From NCBI GenBank assembly GCA_964414985.1, contig CAYPXA010000007.1:12233-76232 (forward strand): a stretch of 64,000 nucleotides of DNA, written 5' to 3'. This stretch comes from an uncultured Methanosarcinales archaeon. GTDB lineage: Archaea; Nanobdellota; Nanobdellia; Woesearchaeales; JAGWAF01. Numbering within the stretch: position 1 is the first letter of the stretch; each line of letters starts with the position of its first letter. Below the pieces are notes generated by a model that had not been told where the DNA came from, ran no database searches, and saw only the letters and a program-made list of their open reading frames with translations. Shown here piece by piece: positions 1 to 63,644 of this stretch. The position numbers were made by a program, and so were the translations under genes.

Positions 1-601
1 ATTTGTGGTGCCTAACAAATTAGTTCTAAGTTCTTAACTGAATTTCTGAAAAGGCTCACTTTCCAGAAAGGCATATAGCCCAATTTGTGCAAAAAAGCAG
101 GCTAAAGCCTTCAAATTTGCCATTTCAGCAGAGGTCATGCAAAAACTGGAAAAATGCATAAAAACTTCGAAAAAAAGAAAAAATAAAGAAAAAACAAACA
201 AATTCTTGAATTATCCCAAAATCTCACTCTTTTTTGATAAGAAATTTGTATTCTGGCAAAACACCCTAAACAAACCCTCACTTTTGGGAGGGATTATTAG
301 CAGTTTAATATCTATTTTATAATAAATATATTTGAATAAGCATTTTCTAAAAGGTATTAAACAAAAACGATATTAAAATATGCATTTTAAAGGAGGATAT
401 AACACTTAAAGATAGAGGTTACAAAAGCATAATCTTTAAATATTAACATTGGTTAACCCGCGGAGTGAGTGAGACGTTTTTCGACGATAAAATCAAAAAA
501 GCTTTTTTTACTACTTTAGCGAGAAAAAGGCAACTGATTTTTGCGAAAAAATTCTCAGATTTTCATAAAAAAATAAAACCAGATTATGTGATTTTCGGAA
601 A

Positions 602-1249
602 ATGAGTGAAGAAAAAATCGAAGAAAGCCTTGAAACTTTTTTAAAACTAGACAAAAAAGCAAACAAAACACCTGAAGCTAAGCGCATTGCAGTCAGATTT
701 AATGAAACCTTAAAAAAACATGTTACCAGCGAGATAAAAGAAGGAAATGACCCTGCATATTTCACTCAAAAAAAGATGAACTATGAAGGCAATTACCTCT
801 CAATGGAGTGCATTCTGGGAGCTGAAGGCATTACAGGAAATCCTAGTGAAATATGCCGCTGTGCAATAAACGCAAATATGACTGCCCGAGAGATGGCAAA
901 TCTTTCTGAAAATGGAACAGCCTATGCTCCTGCTACTGAACCCCTTGTTTTTGGGTTTATCCTCGGAAACTGGTATGACATTTCAAGGATGAGCCAGGCT
1001 ATGGAGTTCTGCGCAACATCAAGGAATGAGAATGTTGTAAAGGATGTTTTTGACCTTAAGGCTGAAATAAGGTTTAAATACGACGGTAATGAGCCTCCTT
1101 CATCGCACCTTATCATGACAGTGTACAATGCTGCATTCCCGCAAAAATTCAGCTTTTTTGATGCCCTGGATTTAGCATATTCCAACCAGCAAAAACAGGA
1201 TAACCCTAAGTGTAAGGAATCATCCCAGAATTCGCTTAATCGTGCATAG
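602..1249 (+). CDS. hypothetical protein (215 aa)
   Basis: Long ORF after an AT-rich leader with a plausible RBS and start; no recognisable motif. Confidence 0.4.
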   Translation: MSEEKIEESLETFLKLDKKANKTPEAKRIAVRFNETLKKHVTSEIKEGNDPAYFTQKKMNYEGNYLSMECILGAEGITGNPSEICRCAINANMTAREMANLSENGTAYAPATEPLVFGFILGNWYDISRMSQAMEFCATSRNENVVKDVFDLKAEIRFKYDGNEPPSSHLIMTVYNAAFPQKFSFFDALDLAYSNQQKQDNPKCKESSQNSLNRA

Positions 1250-1756
1250 AATTGCAAATTTTGCTGTTAAACCGGGGTTGTGCGCGAAGAGCACCTCAAC
1301 CTTTTTTGTCGGAATAACCCTGGAAAAGCAGAGATTATCCCAACTACGTCGGAATAAACCCAGAATGAGCAGTTTTTCTCAAAACCAAGAAAACCCTAGT
1401 TTGTCAAAATTGTCGGGATTTTGGATGCCTGCCAGGCTTTGATGCGCAAAATTTGGCAAATTTTTAAGGGTTTAGCCATATCCAAACACCTTTTTTGAAA
1501 AAAGTCTTCTCTGAGCGCGTTTATTTGATTTTCTTTATAAAGGAAACAAAAAATCAGGCAAAAATCAGGGTTTCAAAAACGCAAAAAAACAATCGAAAAG
1601 AAATTTGATTAAAACTTTTAAGCAAAACCAAATATTTTTAATTAATTTTTTAAACTAAAAGTTACAATTAAAGCTTAAAACTTTTAAGCAAACACCACTG
1701 GACACACTGTCGGGATTATCGTAAAACTTATAAAGAACAGAAATGCAGGGATAATC

Positions 1757-2455
1757 ATGAAATTTGAACTTGAATTAACCGAACCATTGCCAGATGCGGA
1801 AACCGACGAGATAGCAAGGATTTTGCTTGCAAGATTCGGGCTCCTGCCAAGGAAAAAGGACGGCCAGGCAAAGATGCACAGCCTCCTTCTTGAACTGTAT
1901 GAGCGCAAAAAAGCTGCAAACAGGGAAAAGAAGCCTGAAGCAGCAGTCATGACTGTCGAAGACATGGGCATTTTTGCAGGCATTAAGAGGCAGACAATGT
2001 ACGATTACTTGGGCAGATGGCTGTCCCTAAGCCTTCTCAAAAAAACATCGTTTGTAGCCAGCGGAAAGGTCGTAATCGGCTATGAGCTGAACGGCACAAA
2101 CCTTGAATCTGCATTCAAAAAGGCAGAAACAACGATAAGGAGCCATGTCGAGCAGAGCCTTGAGCTTGTGCGGATGCTCCAGAATGAGGTCAAAAAGGAA
2201 AAAATCAGGCAGAATATGCCTTCTGGAGAGCAGACCCCTGCTATTGGCGCAGCTGCTGCAGAATTGGCTGGAAGCGAAGAGCCTGTCGAGCCAGAACCAG
2301 AAGAGCCCAGCCCAGACCCATTAACTCCAGAGCCTGACGAGCCAGAACCCGATAAGCCTGGCCCAGATCCTCTTCAGCCTGACATTCCCCTGGAAGAGAA
2401 GAAAATTGCAGAATGCGCTGAAAAAAAGCAGGAAAATACAGAAAAAACTGAATAA
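1757..2455 (+). CDS. hypothetical protein with C-terminal Pro/Glu-rich low-complexity tail (PEPEEPSPDPLTPEPDEPEPDKPGPDP)
   Basis: 232-aa ORF whose N-terminal half is ordinary protein-like and whose C-terminus is a PE/PD repeat. Confidence 0.4.
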   Translation: MKFELELTEPLPDAETDEIARILLARFGLLPRKKDGQAKMHSLLLELYERKKAANREKKPEAAVMTVEDMGIFAGIKRQTMYDYLGRWLSLSLLKKTSFVASGKVVIGYELNGTNLESAFKKAETTIRSHVEQSLELVRMLQNEVKKEKIRQNMPSGEQTPAIGAAAAELAGSEEPVEPEPEEPSPDPLTPEPDEPEPDKPGPDPLQPDIPLEEKKIAECAEKKQENTEKTE

Positions 2456-2472
2456 AAATCAAAAAAAGGCAT

Positions 2473-3045
2473 TCATACCCAGTATGTCAGAAGGGTGTTT
2501 ATGCCGACGATATTCTCCTTTGCCTGCAGCTCCCTGAATTCAGGCTCAAGAGTGATGTATGCCAGCTTGCTTGAGTACTTCTTTGAAATGGGTATTCCCT
2601 TCTCGACAAGGCTTGTCATGTATGAAGCAACAAGGCTTTCAGTGTAGCCAACCCTTCGTGCAACATCCTTGTAGGTTGTGTACTTGTTGTGCTCTGTAAG
2701 CACGTAAACCGCATAAAAGACCTCCTTTTCCTTTGCAGTAAGCGCCTTTATGCTGTATGCCTTTTTTTCAGCTGAAACACCGCTCTGCTGCTGGAGAATA
2801 AGCGCAAGCTTCTCGATTTTCTCATTCAGCTTGTCAATTTTGCTGTCCAGCTCGCACAAATACTCGAAATTTGACTGGATTTCGTTAGTGTTCTCGTTTA
2901 TGGCCTCAAGATGGTCCTCAAACTGCTCCTTGATCTGCTCAAAGGACTCTGAAACCTGCTCCTTTACGAGCTCAAGCTCACCCTGCTGCTTTTTGGCAAA
3001 AATGCCTACCTGTCCGTCGTTAATGTCACTTCTAATCCCAAACAC
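2473..3045 (-). CDS. coiled-coil protein with C-terminal winged-helix DNA-binding domain
   Basis: N-terminal heptad-rich region (LELVKEQVSESFEQIKEQFEDHLEAINENTNE), C-terminal HTH-like segment (YKDVARRVGYTESLVASYMTSLVEKG). Paralogous in layout to 3124..3867. Confidence 0.45.
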   Translation of the reverse strand: MFGIRSDINDGQVGIFAKKQQGELELVKEQVSESFEQIKEQFEDHLEAINENTNEIQSNFEYLCELDSKIDKLNEKIEKLALILQQQSGVSAEKKAYSIKALTAKEKEVFYAVYVLTEHNKYTTYKDVARRVGYTESLVASYMTSLVEKGIPISKKYSSKLAYITLEPEFRELQAKENIVGINTLLTYWV

Positions 3046-3123
3046 CCCCTAATTGGCTTTTTTGTTTCTGCTTAAATGGTTTTCTGTATTCCAAAATCTA
3101 TTTTGCGATTGCAAAACCTGCTT

Positions 3124-3867
3124 TCAAACTGTCCTCACAGCGTGCTTTTGGACTGCTTTGGGCAGGTAAACCTTCTCCTTGCCCCTTGCAATCATGCTTA
3201 CTGCATCCGCTGCCTCAAGCTCTTCAAGCAGCCTGTAAAACGTGCTTTTAGAGCAAAGCCCCTGCTCCTCCACAATCATCTCCCTTAGGTGGAGCGCAGA
3301 AAGCTCGTCATATCTTGCAATTGTTGAAAGTATAAGGTTTTTGATGTAGTCCTTTGAGTGCCTTGCAACCTTCCTGATGATTTTTTCCTTCAAATTGGAC
3401 ATTCCTGGTGAATGCGCTGAAGCATGGGATATCACCCTTGAAGCAGGCATTTCTTCGAGTTTTCCTGCAAATTCTCTTAGCTTGTCAAACACTGTTTTCT
3501 GGGTTTCCTCCATCATTCTTACCTGCGAATTGAGCACTGCAACCTTGTCGATGATAGGCTCAATTGTCTTGACAGAAACCCCTATTGTGTCAATCTTCTG
3601 CTCAAAATCAGAAAGCTTCCTGGTGATGTGGCTCATGTCTGGAAGCTGAAGCTGGCCCTGCTGAGACTGTGCTTTGGCAAGGTGCTCCATCTGGGCATGG
3701 ATTATCCCTATGAGCTTCTGCCTTTCAGCATCCTGCGAATAAAGATACCTTATCCAGCCGCTGACTGAAGCCATGTCCTGCCTGACTTTCTCGAATGAAT
3801 TTTCGAGGGCTGAGTCAAGCCTGGAAATCCTTGTTTCTATCTCCCCCTTTTTTCTGAACGGCCACAT
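3124..3867 (-). CDS. coiled-coil protein with C-terminal winged-helix DNA-binding domain (paralog of 2473..3045)
   Basis: Long coiled-coil followed by a wHTH-like C-terminus (STFYRLLEELEAADAVSMIARGKEKVYL). Faces the repeat-rich region 3868..5256. Confidence 0.45.
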   Translation of the reverse strand: MWPFRKKGEIETRISRLDSALENSFEKVRQDMASVSGWIRYLYSQDAERQKLIGIIHAQMEHLAKAQSQQGQLQLPDMSHITRKLSDFEQKIDTIGVSVKTIEPIIDKVAVLNSQVRMMEETQKTVFDKLREFAGKLEEMPASRVISHASAHSPGMSNLKEKIIRKVARHSKDYIKNLILSTIARYDELSALHLREMIVEEQGLCSKSTFYRLLEELEAADAVSMIARGKEKVYLPKAVQKHAVRTV

Positions 3868-3918
3868 AATCAGGACTATCCAAAAAATTCTGGTATAAAA
3901 ACCTTTCGATTCAAAAAA

Positions 3919-4091
3919 ATGGGAATGAATTAGGACATTCCCAGGAATAAAATGGGACTATTATGGGAATGAGAAAGCCTTTAAAGTCCTGAATTCATGA
4001 GTTATAGCCTTTTTTGTCATTCCCAATGGGAATGAAATGGGAACGTCCTGGGACTGTCCTGGGAATGAGATGGGAATGAAATGGGAATGAG
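3919..4091. promoter_or_regulatory. cluster of GGGAATG / CATTCCC dyad-symmetric sites (candidate operator array)
   Basis: Inverted repeat GGGAATG-N8-CATTCCC at 3921..3942 and palindrome CATTCCC-AAT-GGGAATG at 4018..4034. Five further ATGGGAATGA direct copies lie between 4038 and 4091. All sit immediately upstream of the minus-strand wHTH gene ending at 3867. Confidence 0.45.
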
Positions 4092-4099
4092 AAAAGTGC

Positions 4100-4440
4100 A
4101 AGAAAAATGGCTGAAAAAAGCCAAAAAAAGCGCAAAAAAGCAGGCCCGAAAATGCCAAAAACAAGCCCAAAAAAAGCGGCAGAAAACCCTAAAAAAGATG
4201 CAAAAAAAAGCATAAAAATCTGCCAAAAAAATGATAAAAAACAGCAAAAAAAAGCATGAAAAAATGCCTAAAAATGGCAAAAAAAATCACTTAAAATTGC
4301 CTTAAAAAACAGCCAAAATTTTGCAAAAAAAGCCAAAAAAGTGATGCCAAAATGAGGCCTAAAATCAGCCAAAAAGTAAGAAAAAAAGCTTGAAAAAAAA
4401 GCTAAAAAAAGTTCAAAAAAAGCTCAAAAGTGAGTCGGTT
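4100..4440. repeat. degenerate tandem array of roughly 12-nt A-rich units (GCnAAAAAAAGC-like)
   Basis: Read directly: gccaaaaaaagcgcaaaaaagcaggcccgaaaatgccaaaaacaagcccaaaaaaagcggc and onward. This produces the spurious K/F-rich ORFs on both strands. Confidence 0.6.
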
Positions 4441-5252
4441 AGGCACCGAAAAAATGCCCAAAAAAAGTGAGATTTGGATCAAAAACGAGGGTTGGTATAG
4501 CCTAAAAGTGCACTAAAAACAGTATATGCCACTATATATACAAGATATGTGTTCTAAGTACAGATTATGGCAAATATTATGATATATTATATCTAGCTTC
4601 TAAGTGCAGAGACACCTGCAATATTATATAGTATGCCTCTATTCCTGAAAAGTGAGAGTTTATTTTGGAAATAATATATGAAATTATGGCAAAATCCCCT
4701 AATTAATGCCCTAAAGTGAGAGTTCAAATAGCAAAAATCCAAGAAAAACAAGGCCTGCAGCCTGAAAAATGAAAGAAAAACTGGAAAAATGAGCAAAATA
4801 TATAGGAATCATATATAAAATCAGGGGAATGTGAGAAATCCTGCGCAGTATTATATAGCCCTATCTGCCAAAAACCCTCAAATCTTCCAAATGAACAAAA
4901 CAAAACAGCACGTTTAGGCTATAATCCCCTAAAAAAAGCCTAAAAGTGAGAATATGAGCTGTTGTCAGCCTGAAAAATCCGCAAAAAACATTTGAAAGAA
5001 TCTGAAAAGACCTTGAAATGACAGAAAACAGGTAATCTATATAGGAATCATATACAAGATAGATACAATCATATTACAACCCATATACTAAATAGTATAT
5101 GCCCTTTCAGAGTTTTATAATAGAACTATATGAATCTATACAAACTGCTGAAAAGTGAGTTAGGCATCAAGTGTGAAAGGCAGGATAAGCCCTAAAACAC
5201 TATATTTTATATACTCCAGCCGGTTTTGAACAGCAAAAATATCAAAAGTGAG
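4427..5252 (+). repeat. seven same-strand copies of the 8-mer AAAGTGAG plus other short dispersed repeats in an AT-rich intergenic region
   Basis: AAAGTGAG at 4428, 4464, 4648, 4713, 4943, 5152 and 5245, all on the + strand and usually preceded by CYnA. TATAGGAATCATATA occurs twice (about 4798 and 5039) and AGTATATGCC twice (about 4523 and 5093). Confidence 0.5.
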
Positions 5253-5256
5253 TGCA

Positions 5257-5895
5257 ATGCCTCAGATTAACTCAAAATCCAGCCTGGCAATAGCTCTTTC
5301 AGGCCTTAAAGGCTTTGAAAAGCCCAAAGTGAGGGAAGAGCAGTATATTACAGAGCCTGAAATCGCTGCAGACGTCATATGGATGATTCTAATGCGCGAG
5401 CAGCTTAATGGAAAGACAGTTGCAGACCTTGGCTCAGGCACAGGAATACTTGGCTTGGGCTGCCTTCTTGCAGGCGCATCAAAGGTGTTTCTCGTCGAGA
5501 AAGATGAGAATGCAATGCTCACTGCAAAGCAGAATTATGAGCTGCTCAAATCAGAAGGATACAAACTGGGAGATGCTGAATTCATCCTTTCAGACATAAA
5601 TGGCTTCAAAGAGAAGGCAGATATTGTGCTCCAGAACCCTCCGTTCGGCACAAAGGATAAGCACGCTGACAGGGAGTTTCTTGAGAAGGCATTTTCGACT
5701 GCAGGAAAGGTGTTTTCATTCCATAAAACCTCAACTGAGCAGTTTGTAAGGGCTTTTGCAGAGTCTTCAGGGTTCCATATCGAGGGAATGCTTGATTTCA
5801 AATTCCCGCTGCACCACACGCAGAATTTCCACACCCGCAGGATACACAGGATAGAAGTCACCCTTTTTGCACTCTCAAATACCAAACCTCAATAA
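5257..5895 (+). CDS. putative RNA N6-adenine methyltransferase, METTL5-like (COG2263 family)
   Basis: SAM-binding motif I VADLGSGTGILG and the catalytic NPPF tetrad (LQNPPFG). Size is about 210 aa. The ATG at 5257 is preferred over the GTG at 5248. Confidence 0.6.
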   Translation: MPQINSKSSLAIALSGLKGFEKPKVREEQYITEPEIAADVIWMILMREQLNGKTVADLGSGTGILGLGCLLAGASKVFLVEKDENAMLTAKQNYELLKSEGYKLGDAEFILSDINGFKEKADIVLQNPPFGTKDKHADREFLEKAFSTAGKVFSFHKTSTEQFVRAFAESSGFHIEGMLDFKFPLHHTQNFHTRRIHRIEVTLFALSNTKPQ

Positions 5896-5929
5896 AAATA
5901 AAAAGGTTTTTAAATGAGCTATTTATTCT

Positions 5930-6214
5930 TTGGTTAAAATGGAAATCAAGGTTCTCGAGGAAAAGAAAAACAGGATGGTAGTTTCAGTTTCAGGCGAAAC
6001 CCACACTGTGTGCAACGCGCTTGTAAAGGAGCTGTGGAACGACAGCCACGTCAAGTCAGCAGGATACAGGATAAACCACCCTCTTGCAGGAGTTCCTACA
6101 GTAATGGTTGAGACCGACGGAGAAGAGCCAAGAAAGGCTGTCAGCGCTGCAATAAAAAGGCTAAAGAAGTCAATTGACGACTTCAAAAAGGCTGCAAAGT
6201 CAATAAAAGAATGA
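5930..6214 (+). CDS. rpoL: DNA-directed RNA polymerase subunit L (Rpo11/RpoL)
   Basis: 94 aa; GETHTVCNALVKEL...GYRINHP matches the Rpb11/RpoL signature (EGHTLGNLL...Y.i.HP). Confidence 0.55.
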   Translation: MVKMEIKVLEEKKNRMVVSVSGETHTVCNALVKELWNDSHVKSAGYRINHPLAGVPTVMVETDGEEPRKAVSAAIKRLKKSIDDFKKAAKSIKE

Positions 6215-6762: not shown

Positions 6763-6842
6763 CTAAAAAGCAATTAGCATCATATTAATCCCGTTATTCT
6801 GAACCCAAAGCCTTAAATACATCATGGTGCCTAACTTTTCAT

Positions 6843-7427
6843 ATGGCCTTTATAAGGGTTAAAAAAGTCAAGCAGTGGGAATATGCCTATCTCGTTGAAA
6901 ACAAATGGAAGTCCAAAAGGACAAAGCAGAAGGTAAAGCAGTATCTTGGAAGGGTCCACCAGCTTGAGAACATTGCAGGCTGCGCATTCTGCCATAACAT
7001 TGAAAAGATGAAGTTTAAAGACGCTGTAAAAGAGCTTGCAAAGTTTGAGCTTGCCAAGTCAGGGTTCAAGGCAAACGGCAATGTGCTTGAAAAGGAAGAT
7101 TTTACTGCAGATTTTGACAAAGGGGAGTTCAGGTCATGCAGTGCAAAACAAAAAAAAGCAAAGGATATTGTTTTTGAGTCAAACGAGGGGTTTATCTGCT
7201 CGCACACTTACAAGTGCCTGGTTAATTTCAAGCCAAGGGAAGACGAGGAGGAGACTGCGCTTTACCTTGCAGAAGCAATACTTGGAGCAGGAATCAGCAT
7301 TCCGCACGAGGTTTTCATAAAGCTTTATGAGAAGGTAAAAGACCCGTGCATGCCAATTATAGAGGATACGCAAAAGTTTATAAACAAGGCATCACCAACC
7401 GAAAACGATTTTGAAAGGTCGAGTTAA
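6843..7427 (+). CDS. hypothetical protein (194 aa)
   Basis: ORF with good start context; no recognisable motif. Confidence 0.35.
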   Translation: MAFIRVKKVKQWEYAYLVENKWKSKRTKQKVKQYLGRVHQLENIAGCAFCHNIEKMKFKDAVKELAKFELAKSGFKANGNVLEKEDFTADFDKGEFRSCSAKQKKAKDIVFESNEGFICSHTYKCLVNFKPREDEEETALYLAEAILGAGISIPHEVFIKLYEKVKDPCMPIIEDTQKFINKASPTENDFERSS

Positions 7428-50257: not shown

Positions 50258-50745
50258 AGTTTTCTTATGAGGCTTACTGAATCGTCCATAAATCCCCAGT
50301 GGTTGTAGATTGCCTTTGCATCAGGATTGTCAGCGCGGACAGCAATTGTAGTGTACTTGAGCCCTTTGCTTTTGAACCATTTGAATGATTCATCCTTAAA
50401 CATTGTGCTTATGCCTTTTCCATGAAACTTGTTCCTGACAAAAAGGTCGCTTAAGTATCCAACCTTGCCTATTTTGAATATAGGGTTGTAATCCTTGATG
50501 AATGAGAGGCAGTAGCCTGCAGGAACACCGCCTTCCTCTGCAATGAAAACAACTGCATTCCTTGCCCTGAGCTTTTTTGAGATGAACTTCCTGAAAATTT
50601 CAATGTAGTTTTCCTTTTTCTCCAAAAACTCAGCTGCTGCAGGATTCCTTTTGATGAGCACTTCCTCATGGTATTTCATAAACTCTTCAAACAATGAAAC
50701 TACTATGTCTGCATCATCCTTTTTTGCCCTTCTTACCTGAATCAT
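50254..50745 (-). CDS. GNAT-family N-acetyltransferase
   Basis: Motif A region RNKFHGKGISTMF; about 160 aa. Confidence 0.65.
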   Translation of the reverse strand: MIQVRRAKKDDADIVVSLFEEFMKYHEEVLIKRNPAAAEFLEKKENYIEIFRKFISKKLRARNAVVFIAEEGGVPAGYCLSFIKDYNPIFKIGKVGYLSDLFVRNKFHGKGISTMFKDESFKWFKSKGLKYTTIAVRADNPDAKAIYNHWGFMDDSVSLIRKL

Positions 50746-51863
50746 AAAAACTCAACCTCTATTTCAGTGGCATCCCAAGTGGGGTATTCTGTCACAATAG
50801 CAGCAGAAAGGCCTTCCTCCTTTATTTTCTTTGCGATTTTTGCAGAAGTGATAAGCCTCATCTTTTTTTCATCAATTTTAAGCACAGATGAGCTTAGCCT
50901 GTATTTTTTAAGTATTAATTCCCTTGCCTGCTTCAGCTTGAGCAATGCATCGCTCCTTTCCTTGTCATTCATTGACTCAAGAATCCTTCTGTAGCCAAAG
51001 CCTGGCTTCAATGAATCAAGGTAGACTGAACCCCTCACAAGCAGGCCTTCATCTGTTATGATGTCAAACTTTTCTGCAGCATTCTTAGCCCTGATTTTTA
51101 TCCTGTTTGCCATCTGCACTGCATCCTTCAGCCTTGTTGTGCAGTAGTGCACAGGAATCCTGCTTTCGTATTTTGCCCCAAGCATTAGCGCAAGCTCGTG
51201 GCTTCCCTCGACAGAGTAGTCAAGCATTGACTTTGCCTTCAGCCCTCGCTTGGCCATTTCATCCATGTTTGTGTCAGACTGCTCGAGCTCGTTTAAGTTC
51301 AGAAATTTGATGAAAGGAAGGAAATAGTCTATTGCCTTTTCAGTCTCATTCCCAAGCTGGGGAATGACTGGAATCTCCATGCCCACGACCCAGCCAAATG
51401 ATGCGATAGTCTTAATTCGTTCCCAGTATTTGCCTGATTCAAGGTCAGGATGGATTCTTATTTCGTCAAGCCCTGCATCATAAAGAAGCTTAAGATTGTC
51501 AGGAGTTGCATGCTCCAAAGTAATGTACATGTGGATATGGAATTTCTTTCCAAACCTTGCTTTTAGAGCCTTTATGTATTCAACACACCTTTCAACCCTA
51601 AGAAGAGGGTCTCCGCCTGTTATGCCTGCGCCTTCTGCCTCGCAGAGCTCTGCCTCCCTTATTATATCCTTAATGCCTGAAGTTTTCCATTCATTTGCAA
51701 AAACAACATCAAGGTTCTTCTTTGCGTCTGAAAGCGGGCAGTACCAGCAGTCCCTGCTGCAGATGCCTGTAACAAAAAGCACGAGCTTTTTTCCCTGCAC
51801 GCACATTGCACAGCCTTCTGAAAGGCCTCCTGACTTCCATGAGCAGAATTTTGTTGGCTCCAT
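50742..51863 (-). CDS. radical SAM domain protein (PflA-like, COG2108-like)
   Basis: CSRDCWYCP is the CxxxCxxC cluster, preceded by an additional Cys pair (CAMC); 373 aa. Confidence 0.55.
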   Translation of the reverse strand: MEPTKFCSWKSGGLSEGCAMCVQGKKLVLFVTGICSRDCWYCPLSDAKKNLDVVFANEWKTSGIKDIIREAELCEAEGAGITGGDPLLRVERCVEYIKALKARFGKKFHIHMYITLEHATPDNLKLLYDAGLDEIRIHPDLESGKYWERIKTIASFGWVVGMEIPVIPQLGNETEKAIDYFLPFIKFLNLNELEQSDTNMDEMAKRGLKAKSMLDYSVEGSHELALMLGAKYESRIPVHYCTTRLKDAVQMANRIKIRAKNAAEKFDIITDEGLLVRGSVYLDSLKPGFGYRRILESMNDKERSDALLKLKQARELILKKYRLSSSVLKIDEKKMRLITSAKIAKKIKEEGLSAAIVTEYPTWDATEIEVEFL

Positions 51864-53809: not shown

Positions 53810-53948
53810 GCGCTGATAGTCTAATGGCTATGAGTTCTTGATGTTGGCAGTTCAATATCAGAGCTAGCAAATACCGGCCTTCCATAATGGAAAGGAAGCT
53901 AACCATTGACGAGAGCCGATGGTCCGGGTTCGAATCCCGGTCAGCGCA
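53810..53948 (+). tRNA. unusually long (139-nt) tRNA gene with one or more introns; anticodon uncertain (UCC-Gly fold preferred, GUU-Asn possible)
   Basis: Acceptor GCGCTGA (53810-16) with TCAGCGC+A (53941-48). Canonical T arm CCGGG-TTCGAAT-CCCGG. Candidate anticodon arm CCGGC-CTTCCAT... with the intron TAATGGAAAGGAAG complementary to the exon CCTTCCA (BHB-like). About 38 extra nt lie between the D region and the anticodon stem. Confidence 0.4.
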
Positions 53949-60152: not shown

Positions 60153-63100
60153 GTGACGAAGATAACCAAAATAGTAATGAACGGATTCAAGTCTTTCGGG
60201 AAAAAGACTGAAATTCTTTTTGGAGACCAGTTCAATGTAATCCTTGGCCCGAACGGCTCCGGAAAGTCAAACGTGCTTGATGCGCTCTGCTTTGTTCTTG
60301 GAAAAGGCTCTGCAAAAGGCCTTAGGGTTGAAAAAAGCTCAAACCTTATTTACAACGGCGGAAAGACCAAAAAGCCTGCAAAAGAGGGCGAAGTCAGCAT
60401 ATTCTTTGACAACACAAAAAAGATTTTTCCGACAGAGGAGGAGTCAGTCAAGATTTCCAGGATAATAAAGCCGAACGGCCAGAGCAAGTACAGGATAAAC
60501 AACAAGACAAGGACAAAGCAGCAGATACTTGACCTTTTGAGCCTTGCAAGGATAGAGCCTGACGGCTACAACATAATACTTCAGGGAGACATAATCCGGT
60601 TTGTTGAGATGCATCCTGTTGAGAAGAGGCAGATGGTTGAGGAGATTGCAGGAATCTCTGTTTACGAGGACAAGAAGCAGAAGGCGCTTGGCGAATTAGG
60701 CAAGGTTGACGAGAAGCTGGGAGAGGCTGAAATAGTCCTCAAGGAAAGGCAGACCTACCTCAAGGAGCTGAAAAAGGACAGGGACCAGGCTCTCAAGTAC
60801 AAGACGCTTAATGATCAGATAAAGCAGAACAAGGCATCATACCTCAAGAGGCAGCTTGACAGGAAGGAAGATGCATCCTCAAAGTTTCAGGAGAAGATTG
60901 ACAGGAAAAAGTCAAAGCTTGACCATTACAGGGAGCAGAGCTCAAAGCTGAAGGAGGCAATTGCGAAGAGGAAGGAGGAAATAAAGAGAATCTCCAAGGA
61001 GGCTGAAGAGAAGGGGGAAGTTGAGCAGGTTGCACTCCAGAAGGAGATTGAGAAGCTTAGGATAGATCTTGCAACTTCCAAGACAAGGATATCCAGCTGC
61101 AGCAATGAGATTGCAAGGATAGGCCAGAGGAGAAGCCAGCTTTCGCAGAACCTTTCAGAAATTGAGGAGAAGATAAGCTCGCTTACAGCGCAGAAGTCAG
61201 ACCTTGAGGGAAGAAGGTCTGCCATAGACGAGCAGAGGGAGAAGCTCGAAAGGACAATTTCAGAATTCAAGAAGAAGAACAAGATGGGGGATGACACAGA
61301 CCTGAGCAAGGAGCTTGACGAGCTTGACAGGAAGGCTGATGAAAAGCAGTCTGAAGTCCAGAAGCTCAGGGAGGCCCAGCAGGAGCTGCTTAGGGAGCAG
61401 GACAGGCTTGGAGTCCAGATACAGATGATGGACGAGAGGATTGCAAAGGTCCTTGAGGTCGAAAAGGCGCACAAGGCAGAGCTTGACAGCCTGAAGCAGA
61501 AGAAATCAGAGTTCAAGAAGGCGACAGTCGAGCTCAACGAGCTTCTCAATAGGGACAGCGAGCTTGCTGCAGGCATTGCAGAGGAGAGGCAGAGGCTCAT
61601 AAAGCTGACAGAAGACATTGCAAGGCTTGAGGCAAAGAACATAAGCGCCAAGGAGAAGGCTGCAGAAAGCATTGCAGTAAAAAAGATTCTTGAGAACAGG
61701 TCTAAATTTGGAGGGCCTGTCTACGGCACTGTCAGCGAGCTTGGAGAAGTTAATGCAAAATACTCTGATGCGCTTGGCGTTGCTGCAGGCAGGAAGATAA
61801 ACAGCATTGTTGTCGAGAATGACTCTGTTGCTGCAAAATGCATAAAATTCCTGAAAGACTCAAAGCTGGGAGTCGCATCATTCCTGCCATTGAACAAGAT
61901 AAAGCCTGAAGATGAAAAAAAATCCTTAGTCAAGCCAGGCCCTGGAATACACGGCACTGCCATAAGCCTTATTGAGTTTGACCCTAAATTCAAGAGCGTG
62001 TTCAGGTATGTTTTTGGAGACACTCTTGTTGTGGACAGCATTGAGGTTGCAAGGAAAGTGGGGATAGGCACTGCAAAAATGGTGACTCTTGACGGAGACC
62101 TTGCAGAGCAGAGCGGAGCAATGATTGGCGGATACAGGCAGAAGAAGGCTGTTTCAGTGTTCAGGGAGAAGGAGCTTTCAGGAGACATTGAAAAGGTCAA
62201 TGCAAAGATTTCAGATTCAAGGTCATCACTTTCATCGCTTGAGAAGCAAAAGCAGGAAAACGAGGACAAAATAACCTCTTTGAGAGAGTTCAAGGCAGGG
62301 CTTGAGGGAGACATAATCAAGGTTGAGAAAGGGCTTCATCTCGAGTCAGGCGACCTTGAGGCTTCAAAGGCAATAAAGGAGCAGTCCCAGAAGAGGATTG
62401 CAGAGGTCTCAAAGCAGATTGATGATGTAATGTCCAATATTTCTGAAATAAATCGGGAGCTTGCCTCGCTGAAAATTGCAAAGCAGAAGCTGAAAGACCA
62501 GTTCAATGACCTTAGGAAGCCTACGCTCATAGCAGAGCTGAACTCATTTGAGGAGAAGAAGAGGCAGCTTACCGAAGAGCTTCTAAAGATGGAATCAGAA
62601 TGCAAGAACATTGACATGCAGGTAAAGGAAATCCTTGGAAGGGACAGGGACAATACTGCAAGAATCCTGAAGGACCTTGACAGGGAGGAAGACGCATTTT
62701 CTCACGAGTCTAAGGACCTGGAGGATATAGTCTCGCAGAAGGAGTCAGTCCTTAAAGGAATGGATGCAAAGCAGAAGGAGTTCCAGACAAGGTTCAAGGG
62801 CCTTTTTGAGTCCATCAACCAGCTGAATGAGAAGAATTCAGAGTCTGAAGCTGAGCTTTACAAGGTTGATGATCTAAGCAGGAAGGAGGAGCTTGAGATG
62901 AACACGCTTTCACTCGAGCAGGCAAAGGTCAGGGCAGAGCTTGCAGGCATAAAGGAAGACTTTGCGCAGTACGAAGGAATTGAGCTTGACATGCAGAAGC
63001 CTGAAGAGCAGCTCAAGAAGGAGATTTCAGACTTTGAAAAGATGAAGGAGAACATCGGCTCTGTCAACATGAGGGCTCTTGAGATTTACGAGTCTGTCGA

Positions 63101-63644
63101 AAAGGAGTACAACAGCCTGCTTGAGAAGAAGGAAAGCCTGAAGAAGGAGAAGGATGACGTTGTTGGGCTTATTGCAGACATTGACGGCAGGAAAAAGGAC
63201 CTTTTCATGAATACTTATAATATTGTCTCAAAGAATTTCCAGGACATATTCTCATCGCTTTCCAAGAAGGGAGAGGCGCATCTCACTCTTGAAAACACTG
63301 AAAGCCCATTCGACGGAGGCCTTAATGTCAATGTCAAGCTTACAGGCAGCAAGTTCCTTGACATAAGGAGCCTTTCAGGAGGGGAAAAGACTCTTACAGC
63401 CCTCGCATTCATATTTGCAATACAGGAGCACGAGCCTGCATCATTCTACATACTTGACGAAGTTGACGCTGCGCTTGACAAGCACAACAGCGAGAAGCTT
63501 GCAAAGCTCATAAGGAAGTATTCAGACAGGGCGCAATACATCATAATCTCGCACAATGACTCAATAATATCTGAAGGCGACACGCTTTATGGAGTCAGCA
63601 TGGACGAGACAAGCACCAGCAATGTTGTCAGCCTCAAGATTTAG
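60153..63644 (+). CDS. smc: chromosome segregation protein SMC
   Basis: 1163 aa; Walker A (GPNGSGKSN), long coiled coils, a central hinge (GTVSELGEVNAKYSDALGVAAG), a C-terminal signature (LSGGEKTLTALAFIFAIQ) and Walker B (FYILDEVDAALD). Confidence 0.9.
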   Translation: MTKITKIVMNGFKSFGKKTEILFGDQFNVILGPNGSGKSNVLDALCFVLGKGSAKGLRVEKSSNLIYNGGKTKKPAKEGEVSIFFDNTKKIFPTEEESVKISRIIKPNGQSKYRINNKTRTKQQILDLLSLARIEPDGYNIILQGDIIRFVEMHPVEKRQMVEEIAGISVYEDKKQKALGELGKVDEKLGEAEIVLKERQTYLKELKKDRDQALKYKTLNDQIKQNKASYLKRQLDRKEDASSKFQEKIDRKKSKLDHYREQSSKLKEAIAKRKEEIKRISKEAEEKGEVEQVALQKEIEKLRIDLATSKTRISSCSNEIARIGQRRSQLSQNLSEIEEKISSLTAQKSDLEGRRSAIDEQREKLERTISEFKKKNKMGDDTDLSKELDELDRKADEKQSEVQKLREAQQELLREQDRLGVQIQMMDERIAKVLEVEKAHKAELDSLKQKKSEFKKATVELNELLNRDSELAAGIAEERQRLIKLTEDIARLEAKNISAKEKAAESIAVKKILENRSKFGGPVYGTVSELGEVNAKYSDALGVAAGRKINSIVVENDSVAAKCIKFLKDSKLGVASFLPLNKIKPEDEKKSLVKPGPGIHGTAISLIEFDPKFKSVFRYVFGDTLVVDSIEVARKVGIGTAKMVTLDGDLAEQSGAMIGGYRQKKAVSVFREKELSGDIEKVNAKISDSRSSLSSLEKQKQENEDKITSLREFKAGLEGDIIKVEKGLHLESGDLEASKAIKEQSQKRIAEVSKQIDDVMSNISEINRELASLKIAKQKLKDQFNDLRKPTLIAELNSFEEKKRQLTEELLKMESECKNIDMQVKEILGRDRDNTARILKDLDREEDAFSHESKDLEDIVSQKESVLKGMDAKQKEFQTRFKGLFESINQLNEKNSESEAELYKVDDLSRKEELEMNTLSLEQAKVRAELAGIKEDFAQYEGIELDMQKPEEQLKKEISDFEKMKENIGSVNMRALEIYESVEKEYNSLLEKKESLKKEKDDVVGLIADIDGRKKDLFMNTYNIVSKNFQDIFSSLSKKGEAHLTLENTESPFDGGLNVNVKLTGSKFLDIRSLSGGEKTLTALAFIFAIQEHEPASFYILDEVDAALDKHNSEKLAKLIRKYSDRAQYIIISHNDSIISEGDTLYGVSMDETSTSNVVSLKI

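Follow-up and report, generated by a model that had tools for sequence, protein, structure and literature searches.

The 1389-bp gap at positions 3868-5256 of a 64,000-nt stretch of an uncultured Woesearchaeales archaeon (the whole stretch is called the window throughout) holds the larger arm of what is, judged from sequence comparison, a two-armed DNA scaffold, undescribed so far and conserved across a whole order of DPANN archaea. The gap lies between a divergent winged helix-turn-helix (wHTH) gene, here called g4, and a METTL5-like gene, and the two arms are arrays of a short polar repeat in mirror orientation on either side of a small gene cassette, g4-g3-g2. On the same comparison the scaffold is a single-copy fixture of Woesearchaeales chromosomes; literature searches on the motif and on Woesearchaeota origins turned up no account of such a module. 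The reading that we favor, and to which we would give an even chance, is that the region forms one side of a bipartite, mirror-symmetric nucleoprotein scaffold by which the cassette is autoregulated and whose most likely role is that of a barrier or boundary element. Rather than a replication origin, the region is probably a chromosomal complex of an architectural or regulatory kind.

The gap is non-coding and has a GC content of about 0.32, against 0.44 for the whole window. It is the longest intergenic stretch in 67.5 kb, the contig reaching 3.5 kb further left of the window (L001; loci and assemblies are referred to by such L numbers). As the initial annotation had it, no credible open reading frame (ORF) lies between the wHTH gene and the METTL5-like gene: both flanks are in place, and only Lys-rich ORFs in a block of A-tracts are found inside. 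Small Lys-rich proteins from that block (50-residue genes called by Logan) were considered and rejected, because the 11-nt period of the A-tracts breaks the frame and two overlapping frames give similar peptides; their position, length and frame are not conserved. The flanks and the repeat sites are the following.

3124-3867, minus strand: g4, the divergent wHTH gene on the left flank of the region
5257-5895, plus strand: the METTL5-like gene on the right flank (Pfam MTS, Cons_hypoth95 and PrmA)
4427-5252, plus strand: right-hand array of seven polar sites with the consensus aAAAGTGAGaGTT, at 4427, 4464, 4649, 4713, 4943, 5152 and 5245
4427-4447, plus strand: composite site made of AAAGTGAG, TCG and GTTAGGCACC, recognized from the sequence and its relatives
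4649-4725, plus strand: double-site unit, two copies of AAAGTGAGAGTT 64 bp apart with a central dyad TGGCAAAATCCCC at 4687-4699
5326-5333, plus strand: eighth same-strand AAAGTGAG, inside METTL5 at codon position +69, where it encodes K-V-R
7-284, minus strand: left-hand mirror arm, with AAAGTGAG at 277-284 and 55-62, AGAGTGAG at 223-230 and GGTGCCTAA at 7-15 (plus strand)

All seven same-strand copies of AAAGTGAG that had been reported at 4428-5252 were found, on the plus strand and within 4427-5252. The window holds ten copies in total, while shuffled sequences lead one to expect 3.8 per 64 kb on both strands; of the other three, one falls within METTL5 (5326) and two are minus-strand copies in a second AT-rich gap (55 and 277). 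The repeats are real and far beyond chance. They are not a general promoter or Shine-Dalgarno element, since there are no copies elsewhere in the window, although the last AAAGTGAG of the right array, which ends 4 nt before the METTL5 ATG, may double as the ribosome-binding site of that gene. Nor are they spread like the FtsK-orienting polar sequences (KOPS): the block is where their polarity converges, but there are zero copies in the remaining 58 kb of the window and almost none in the flanks of related loci. They do not form a CRISPR array either, the conserved core being 12-13 bp and the spacing 37-230 bp, against the repeats of 24-48 bp, with unique spacers of about that length, that such an array requires. 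The duplicated 15-17-mers of the initial annotation, TATAGGAATCATATA at 4802 and 5040 and AGTATATGCC at 4521 and 5094, are likewise present and turn out to be part of a segmental duplication of about 230 bp (4684-4821 versus 4914-5060).

The evidence that carries the argument comes from related loci. A profile of g4 homologues retrieved 80 metagenomic loci, 45 of which have at least 1200 nt upstream of g4. Every one of these 45 carries three to seven exact copies of AAAGTGAG at 350-1400 nt from the g4 ATG, all directed away from g4, and in this set the order is constant, with TGGGAMTR boxes first (50-500 nt from g4) and the AAAGTGAG array after them. Counted over all loci, 209 copies between -350 and -1500 nt of the g4 ATG point away from g4 and none points the opposite way. 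A second cluster, at +2000 to +3500 nt and beyond g3 and g2, has 66 copies directed away and 21 inward, and elsewhere within 6 kb on either side the count is essentially zero. A word census of 37 loci found AAAAGTGAGAGTT(C) in all 37, on a single strand only, and TTAGGCAC in 26. The earlier idea of a hub of iterated protein-binding motifs gains from this comparison, since in 45 of 45 loci the strand of three motif classes, their order and how far they are from the wHTH gene are all preserved. When species-representative genomes were scanned for the composite pattern AAAGTGAG...TTAGGCACC, 51 hits came up, with one in each of seven DPANN genomes; the remaining 44 were chance bacterial matches.

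In three relatives (L005, L007 and L008), the gap is laid out like that of the window: boxes by g4, A-tracts, GTTAGGCACC, and a series of (A)AAAGTGAGRGTTT up to the METTL5 ATG. With blastn, only the box region (to about 4095), 4637-4725 and 4914-4951 align with these loci, while the remainder has diverged. It is the architecture, and not the sequence, that is conserved, because the motifs alone align between close relatives. The double-site unit, one of two patches within 4096-5236 that align with relatives, is present in the same three loci, and the composite of AAAGTGAG, TCG and GTTAGGCACC is found in both arms of L005, L007, L008, L017, L050 and L058.

The mirror-symmetric partner arm had been overlooked by the initial annotation, as had the position of the last AAAGTGAG abutting METTL5 and the period of about 11 bp in the A-tracts. 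One more copy of the motif belongs to this left arm; it is 64 nt beyond the left end of the window and follows the stop codon of the convergent PAC2 gene by 9 nt. In the left arm of two other loci, TTAGGCACYA occurs in tandem with a spacing of about 30 bp (L073 8514-8612; L103 8674-8741), so the third motif class can also be iterated.

Several properties of the arrays point to an element that works as duplex DNA. Neighboring sites tend to be separated by multiples of 10.6 bp (R = 0.42, where 500 jittered controls reached 0.24 at most, in a statistic that counts related loci as partly independent). In the motif logo, A-rich positions return upstream of each site with a step of 10-11 bp, and a TATA box at constant distance is lacking. 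Sites also extend into coding sequence. Where the gap between g4 and METTL5 is 400-700 bp, most loci have 0-2 intergenic sites and two to four more inside METTL5, at the recurrent positions +69, +241, +292, +385 and +469 and in two reading frames; where the gap is at least 950 bp, four to seven sites are intergenic and usually the +69 site alone is left in METTL5. That +69 site is at the same codon position in most relatives. Since short gaps push sites into METTL5, the array keeps a set distance from g4, gene or no gene. The left array similarly stays put whichever gene adjoins it, be it an inward-facing g2 or the 3' end of xerA. The 10.6-bp phasing, the sites inside coding sequence and the lack of a fixed TATA box together argue for a function of the DNA duplex.

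The same observations bear on an RNA-level explanation, in which the sites would be small non-coding RNA genes or tandem promoters, with AAAGTGAG as a transcript start or end, or in which a repeat-bearing leader RNA would titrate an RNA-binding protein. All sites of an arm are on one strand, TATA-like words are scattered in 4500-5220, and the minus strand of 4430-5256 folds better than its shuffles (z = -3.6, 20 shuffles), as such a reading would have it. The plus strand, however, does not stand out (z = -1.0), and the excess on the minus strand may come from local inverted repeats and the 230-bp duplication. Phasing at 10.6 bp is a property of duplex DNA, the motif lacks a TATA box at constant distance, even close relatives do not conserve what lies between the sites, and transcripts from the left arm would be antisense to PAC2. 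A search of Rfam found only three tRNAs in the window at the gathering score and nothing credible in 1-5400 even at E up to 5. We regard the RNA explanation as the least likely of those considered here, and very unlikely in itself.

Closest to g4, the region carries a second class of sites together with the promoter of the gene itself.

3894-3908, minus strand: core of the g4 promoter, CGAAAGG-TTTTTATA (a B recognition element, BRE, plus TATA), assigned by the archaeal BRE/TATA consensus
3920-4090, no strand assigned: TGGGAMTR box cluster, candidate operators of g4, from motif counts and conservation
3983-4003, no strand assigned: palindrome AAAGTCCTGAATTCATGAGTT within the box cluster, an inverted repeat

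The 3' end of the promoter core is only 26 nt before the ATG, so the g4 mRNA would have a short leader or none; the element is at the same place in L005, L007, L008 and L106. The exact 9-mer TGGGAATGA occurs eight times in 3920-4090 and once elsewhere in the 64 kb; the copies listed are at 3920, 3964, 4027, 4060, 4071 and 4082 on the plus strand and 4017 on the minus strand, and a copy with one mismatch is at 3935 (minus). The dyad sites and direct repeats noted before at 3919-4091 are present, with boxes in 3920-4090, dyads at 3920-3943 and 4017-4035, and six box units over 4027-4090 at a spacing of exactly 11 bp. In L005 the counterpart of the 3983-4003 palindrome is a perfect palindrome, AAAGTCCTAAATTTAGGACTTT, and L008 has a similar one. 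The box stretch and the g4 coding sequence align with L005, L007 and L008 at 67-73% identity (blastn), and in the word census 32 of 37 related loci have box words, some 50-500 nt away from the g4 ATG. One natural case ties g4 to the boxes and the right array, because all three are absent together: locus L050 (Woesearchaeota SI034_bin151, 2000-6200) has PAC2, g2, g3 and METTL5, and there g4 is not detectable, the TGGGAMTR boxes and the right-hand array are missing, and the left-arm sites are in both orientations. The sole TGGGAATGA outside the region belongs to a dyad, TCATTCCCA-N4-GGGGAATGA, at 51346-51425, inside the radical-SAM ORF 50742-51863, with a third near-copy 60 nt off; this dyad could be an extra binding site, or chance.

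The main rival to a chromosomal scaffold is a purely transcriptional hub. It would be an elaborate cis-regulatory region for the autoregulation of g4 and g2 and the control of the METTL5-rpoL-L12 operon, whose arrays would loop as distal operators or enhancer-like sites and have no chromosome-level role. The boxes abut the BRE/TATA element of g4, both arrays are upstream of inward-facing cassette genes in loci of the g2 type, and helical phasing is also typical of looping repressors. The last AAAGTGAG is always 13-16 nt before the METTL5 ATG. An exact copy of GGTGCCTAA, the reverse complement of the array-associated TTAGGCACC, stands at 6826-6834, between a TATA-like box and the ATG of an unnamed 194-residue ORF (6843-7427); it recurs before the orthologues of this ORF in L005, L007 and L008 and before rpoL in L017, and may be an operator that ties the ORF, or rpoL, to the cassette. 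A general leader element was rejected for GGTGCCTAA, as the window has only three exact copies. The transcriptional explanation does less well with the loci of the xerA type, where the left array is downstream of xerA and has no inward-facing gene to control, and with the outermost left site, 9 nt past the stop codon of a convergent gene. The sites inside METTL5 are retained at a cost in codon choice, and the number of sites, four to eight over about 1 kb, far exceeds that of known archaeal operators. We consider the hub possible, if clearly less probable than the scaffold.

Between the boxes and the right array of the window lies the block of A-tracts.

4092-4430, plus strand: 31 phased A-tracts, from Fourier and spacing analysis; the minus strand reads as 31 oligo-T tracts

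The degenerate A-rich array that had been placed at 4100-4440 is thus there, at 4092-4430, but its repeat was described as a 12-mer, and the period is about 11 bp and not 12, since the mean spacing is 11.13 bp and the Fourier peak 11.2 bp. Its periodic power of 16.7 is the strongest in the window (median 0.25, 99th percentile 2.3). The power is 7.5 and 6.9 in the closest relatives (L005 and L007, respectively), and weak or absent in distant ones, for which reason the block is taken as a lineage-specific spacer. It is expected, from its sequence, to be intrinsically curved or superhelical spacer DNA.

The proteins that would occupy these sites are presumably encoded between the arms, as the repeat arrays adjoin the genes of the putative binders: in 35-45 loci, g4, g3 and g2 have the boxes and arrays on their flanks.

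2473-3045, minus strand: g3, 190 residues, with a weak HTH_24 match and a probable C-terminal wHTH
1757-2455, plus strand: g2, a wHTH of about 155 residues and a long C-terminal helix (modelled), with an acidic Pro-rich tail in this lineage

The 247-residue g4 protein is predicted to have long helices at 5-67 and 78-138 and a C-terminal wHTH (AlphaFold; mean predicted local distance difference test score, pLDDT, 82.7), and its recognition helix is invariant across the family alignment. Its Foldseek matches are generic, to wHTH proteins of the ArsR/SmtB/PadR/TubR type, with TubR no better than the ArsR type, and it has no Pfam family at the cut-off. The N-terminal half of g3 is probably a coiled-coil, going by weak matches to coiled-coil proteins. 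The genes g3 and g4 are adjacent in 35 of the 35 longer loci, and they were rejected as paralogues (BLASTP E = 0.19). Across loci g2 is better conserved than ribosomal protein L1, the identity being 57-88% for g2, 48-72% for L1 and 29-61% for g4; the homologues of g2 fall in 554 unnamed clusters, and g1, on the far side of g2, is not conserved. No family assignment was accepted for any of g1-g4, the Pfam, NCBIfam, PHROGs and PDB sequence searches all remaining below their cut-offs. The window also encodes an SMC protein of 1163 residues (TIGR02169, 829 bits) at 60153-63644, about 55 kb from the locus.

A sister clade offers a further clue. About 10 of 35 loci have a tyrosine recombinase in place of g2; the two copies that were scored pass the NCBIfam cut-off for XerA of 220 bits (L058 234.5, L071 228.8). 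Seven loci have an 11-6-11 inverted repeat, GTCGTATAA-N6-TTATACGAC, between the arrays.

Dif-like sites: L058, 2286-2313; L069, 7638; L071, 7628; L091, 1680; L097, 7660; L116, 7730; L130, 3315

The repeat has its place between g3 and the gene of the recombinase (in L069, whose contig stops short of that gene, at the corresponding position), and in loci with a defined g4 start it is 1.6-2.0 kb away from the g4 ATG. The recombinase gene follows it in at least six of the seven loci; in L069 none was detected. In three loci the center of the repeat is TGTATA, as it is in the E. coli dif site. By its sequence and its company, the repeat is a candidate for the Woesearchaeal chromosome dimer-resolution site, and dif marks the terminus side, not the origin, in the systems that have been studied. 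A more specific and rather tentative proposal, which we think has a modest chance of being right, is that the locus is a self-encoded polar barrier, in which opposed AAAAGTGAGAGTT arrays and locus-encoded wHTH and coiled-coil proteins would bracket the dimer-resolution site and serve as a fork trap, an SMC-stalling boundary, or both.

How the favored scaffold could work may be outlined as follows. Read outward from g4, it would comprise the promoter, the 11-bp-phased TGGGAMTR operators, in this lineage a 340-bp curved A-tract spacer, and then a helically phased polar array of 13-bp AAAAGTGAGAGTT sites up to METTL5, or into METTL5 in relatives, with a shorter array of opposite orientation beyond the cassette g4-g3-g2. 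The three cassette proteins, each predicted to combine a winged helix with long helices, would sit next to one another on these sites, all on the same face of the DNA, and their binding would build a stiff or looped nucleoprotein complex, while the box cluster would autoregulate g4. The barrier could then be a boundary of chromosome domains (SMC), or a polar block to forks or to transcription. A barrier or boundary is favored because the left array persists whatever gene adjoins it, because sites invade coding sequence, and because dif and xerA are found between the arms in the sister clade. The 8-mer stays invariant, even in coding sequence, although the protein next to it has drifted to about 30% identity, which suggests a strongly selected function at the level of the chromosome.

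It is worth setting out what weighs against a barrier. That the last site keeps a constant place ahead of the METTL5 ATG fits plain transcriptional or translational control equally well, and the GGTGCCTAA copy before ORF 6843-7427 fits plain operon control equally well. The related loci behind the phasing statistic are partly dependent on one another, as said above. The link to dif rests on the sister clade (about 10 of 35 loci), because in the 67.5 kb examined the lineage of the window shows neither a XerA gene nor a dif site above chance; a candidate dif in the window was rejected, its best match of 13 out of 18 positions being equal to shuffle maxima. For g2, g3 and g4, Pfam gives no TrmB-family match (E up to 0.01), and the fold matches obtained are generic. 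Finally, the gene orientation at the locus is neither the divergence typical of an origin nor the convergence typical of a terminus.

The initial annotation had also offered a replication origin, and this claim found no support. In such an explanation the arrays would be iterons or mini origin recognition boxes (mini-ORBs), the A-tracts an unwinding element, and the cassette wHTH a WhiP/Cdt1-like or Rep-like initiator. The long AT-rich region, the iterated sites and the two arrays inverted to each other are reminiscent of an origin, and rpoL with the ribosomal-protein operon is directed away from the locus. But no initiator gene is at hand. The earlier remark that the window has no Orc1/Cdc6 gene was borne out, with none from 3.5 kb left of the window to its right end, 59 kb past the gap; the window, L001 and about 90 related loci yielded no ORF of Orc1-like or other initiator-type P-loop kind, and no Orc1/Cdc6 lies within 10 kb on either side of the locus on a 579-kb scaffold. 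Ten ORFs of 346-417 residues in the window carry other Pfam domains. Orc1/Cdc6 is thus absent nearby in every locus, even though the gene is present in 206 of 208 complete Nanobdellota genomes (10.64898/2026.05.13.725050). The layout does not suit an origin either: the seven sites are on one strand, and the inverted arm is about 4 kb away across four genes (2.5-4 kb, with genes between, over the loci), instead of inverted ORBs close by on both sides of an unwinding element. Most relatives lack the A-tract block, sites extend into coding sequence, and in the sister clade xerA and dif are inside the module. A rising cumulative GC skew was discarded as evidence, because coding-strand bias explains it (c = 0.12, r = 0.01); the strand-corrected replicative skew is about 0.01 (+0.014 on the right, and -0.04 on the left, where there is only 2.3 kb of G+C). 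An origin is therefore highly improbable in our estimation.

A chromosomal centromere, with the arrays as the partition site and g2-g4 as binding or adaptor proteins for a motor encoded elsewhere, would account for a single-copy locus, for phased direct repeats by wHTH genes, as in tubC/TubR and parC/ParR, and for sites tolerated in coding sequence, as with parS. TubR is even among the fold matches of g4, but that match is no better than those to generic ArsR-type regulators. No ORF for a nucleoside triphosphatase (NTPase) of the ParA, ParM, TubZ or SegA kind was found within 6-10 kb to either side in about 35 loci or in the 64-kb window, and a P-loop scan of the loci gave a GTPase, an IF2-like protein and SMC, in the window only, none of them adjoining the module. 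Centromeres, moreover, are normally near origins, while it is dif that sits here in the sister clade. We hold a centromere to be improbable, if a shade less so than an origin.

The surroundings of the locus are shared as well. In L005, L007 and L008 the order is PAC2, a gap, g1, a gap, g2 (forward), g3 (reverse) and g4 (reverse), and beyond g4 a gap of 0.9-1.1 kb, METTL5, rpoL, AMMECR1, an unnamed gene, UPPS, L1 and L10; the neighboring operon is METTL5-rpoL-AMMECR1-UPPS-L1-L10-L12. The block and both its neighbors (PAC2 on one side, METTL5 or rpoL on the other) are syntenic in 25-35 loci at 30-60% protein identity, and a mobile element with inverted-repeat borders was rejected on this ground. 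A PHROGs search returned no match, and viral contigs gave only two chance pattern matches. The closest METTL5 homologues are at most 65% identical and are named Candidatus Woesearchaeota; a search of genome contigs with the single METTL5 protein gave no match. Three independent Logan assemblies of the same population (L001, L004 and L003; 99.8-100% identical) break at 4186, 4969 and 5133. Since all three break inside it, the region evidently resists assembly from short reads, and metagenome-assembled genomes may for this reason contain too few of the related loci. The gap between g1 and g2 has repeats of its own, four copies of GTCGGRATWA (1309, 1349, 1412 and 1710, of which the 1710 copy is immediately upstream of the TATA box of g2) and two of AAAACTTTTAAGCAAA (1612 and 1679). 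Farther off, a 139-nt Rfam tRNA match at 53810-53948 (40.2 bits), not reported by ARAGORN, is probably an intron-containing archaeal tRNA.

DPANN archaea have compact genomes. Here, nevertheless, about 3 kb of non-coding DNA and three uncharacterized, putative DNA-binding proteins are retained across an entire order. To our knowledge, archaeal termination and SMC boundaries are currently known only from non-specific nucleoid proteins or fork collision. A barrier around dif would give a sequence-addressable system for archaeal replication termination or SMC boundary formation, and the polar barrier, if true, would be the first archaeal system of a Tus/RTP-like or CTCF-like kind with defined cis sites and dedicated proteins. 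Even a purely regulatory function would leave three new candidate pairs of motif and protein, and a genomic landmark for orienting Woesearchaeal genomes.

Several known systems resemble this one in part. Archaeal oriC regions share with it about 1 kb of AT-rich DNA with many copies of a 12-13-bp motif, some of them inverted, and the AGTG core presumably resembles the center of the mini-ORB. They differ in that here no orc1/cdc6 is adjacent, no unwinding element lies between inverted sites, sites are found in coding sequence, and the module of the sister clade contains xerA and dif. The plasmid centromeres parC/ParR and tubC/TubR also have helically phased short direct repeats upstream of the gene of a small autoregulating DNA-binding protein, and the 11-bp phased run of TGGGAATGA resembles the 11-bp iterons of parC. 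The present locus, however, has no adjacent motor NTPase and is chromosomal, with order-wide synteny, two opposed arms and three motif classes.

Another likeness is found in the fork traps of bacteria, whereas archaeal termination is commonly ascribed to fork collision. In Tus/Ter of E. coli and RTP/Ter of B. subtilis, polar sites are gathered in two groups that face each other across a central zone near dif, the binder's gene adjoins the innermost sites, and sites may be inside genes. The arrays described here likewise consist of asymmetric sites in two opposed groups, with strand counts of 209:0 and 66:21, and RTP combines a winged helix with a long dimerizing helix, as predicted for g2. Ter sites, on the other hand, span tens to hundreds of kilobases, while here there are four to eight per kb, and g4, g3 and the profile of g2 have no PDB sequence match and no sequence or specific fold similarity to Tus or RTP.

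The closest analogue, as far as the comparison goes, is the TrmBL2/A-tract boundary at dif in Thermococcus kodakarensis. Boundary 1 of that species is a 1.9-kb intergenic region with dif, where the wHTH protein TrmBL2 binds both sides and stalls Smc, more efficiently with a higher A-tract content (PMC11840125). The two loci have in common 1-2 kb of AT-rich, A-tract-rich intergenic DNA, an encoded SMC and a single prominent locus, as well as wHTH proteins on both sides (putative here) with dif between the sides (in the sister clade here). They differ in that the cassette proteins are not detectably of the TrmB family and that the lineage of the window has g2 in place of xerA and dif. What sets the Woesearchaeal locus apart are its strictly polar, sequence-specific 13-bp sites, their mirror orientation, and the putative binders encoded inside the locus itself.

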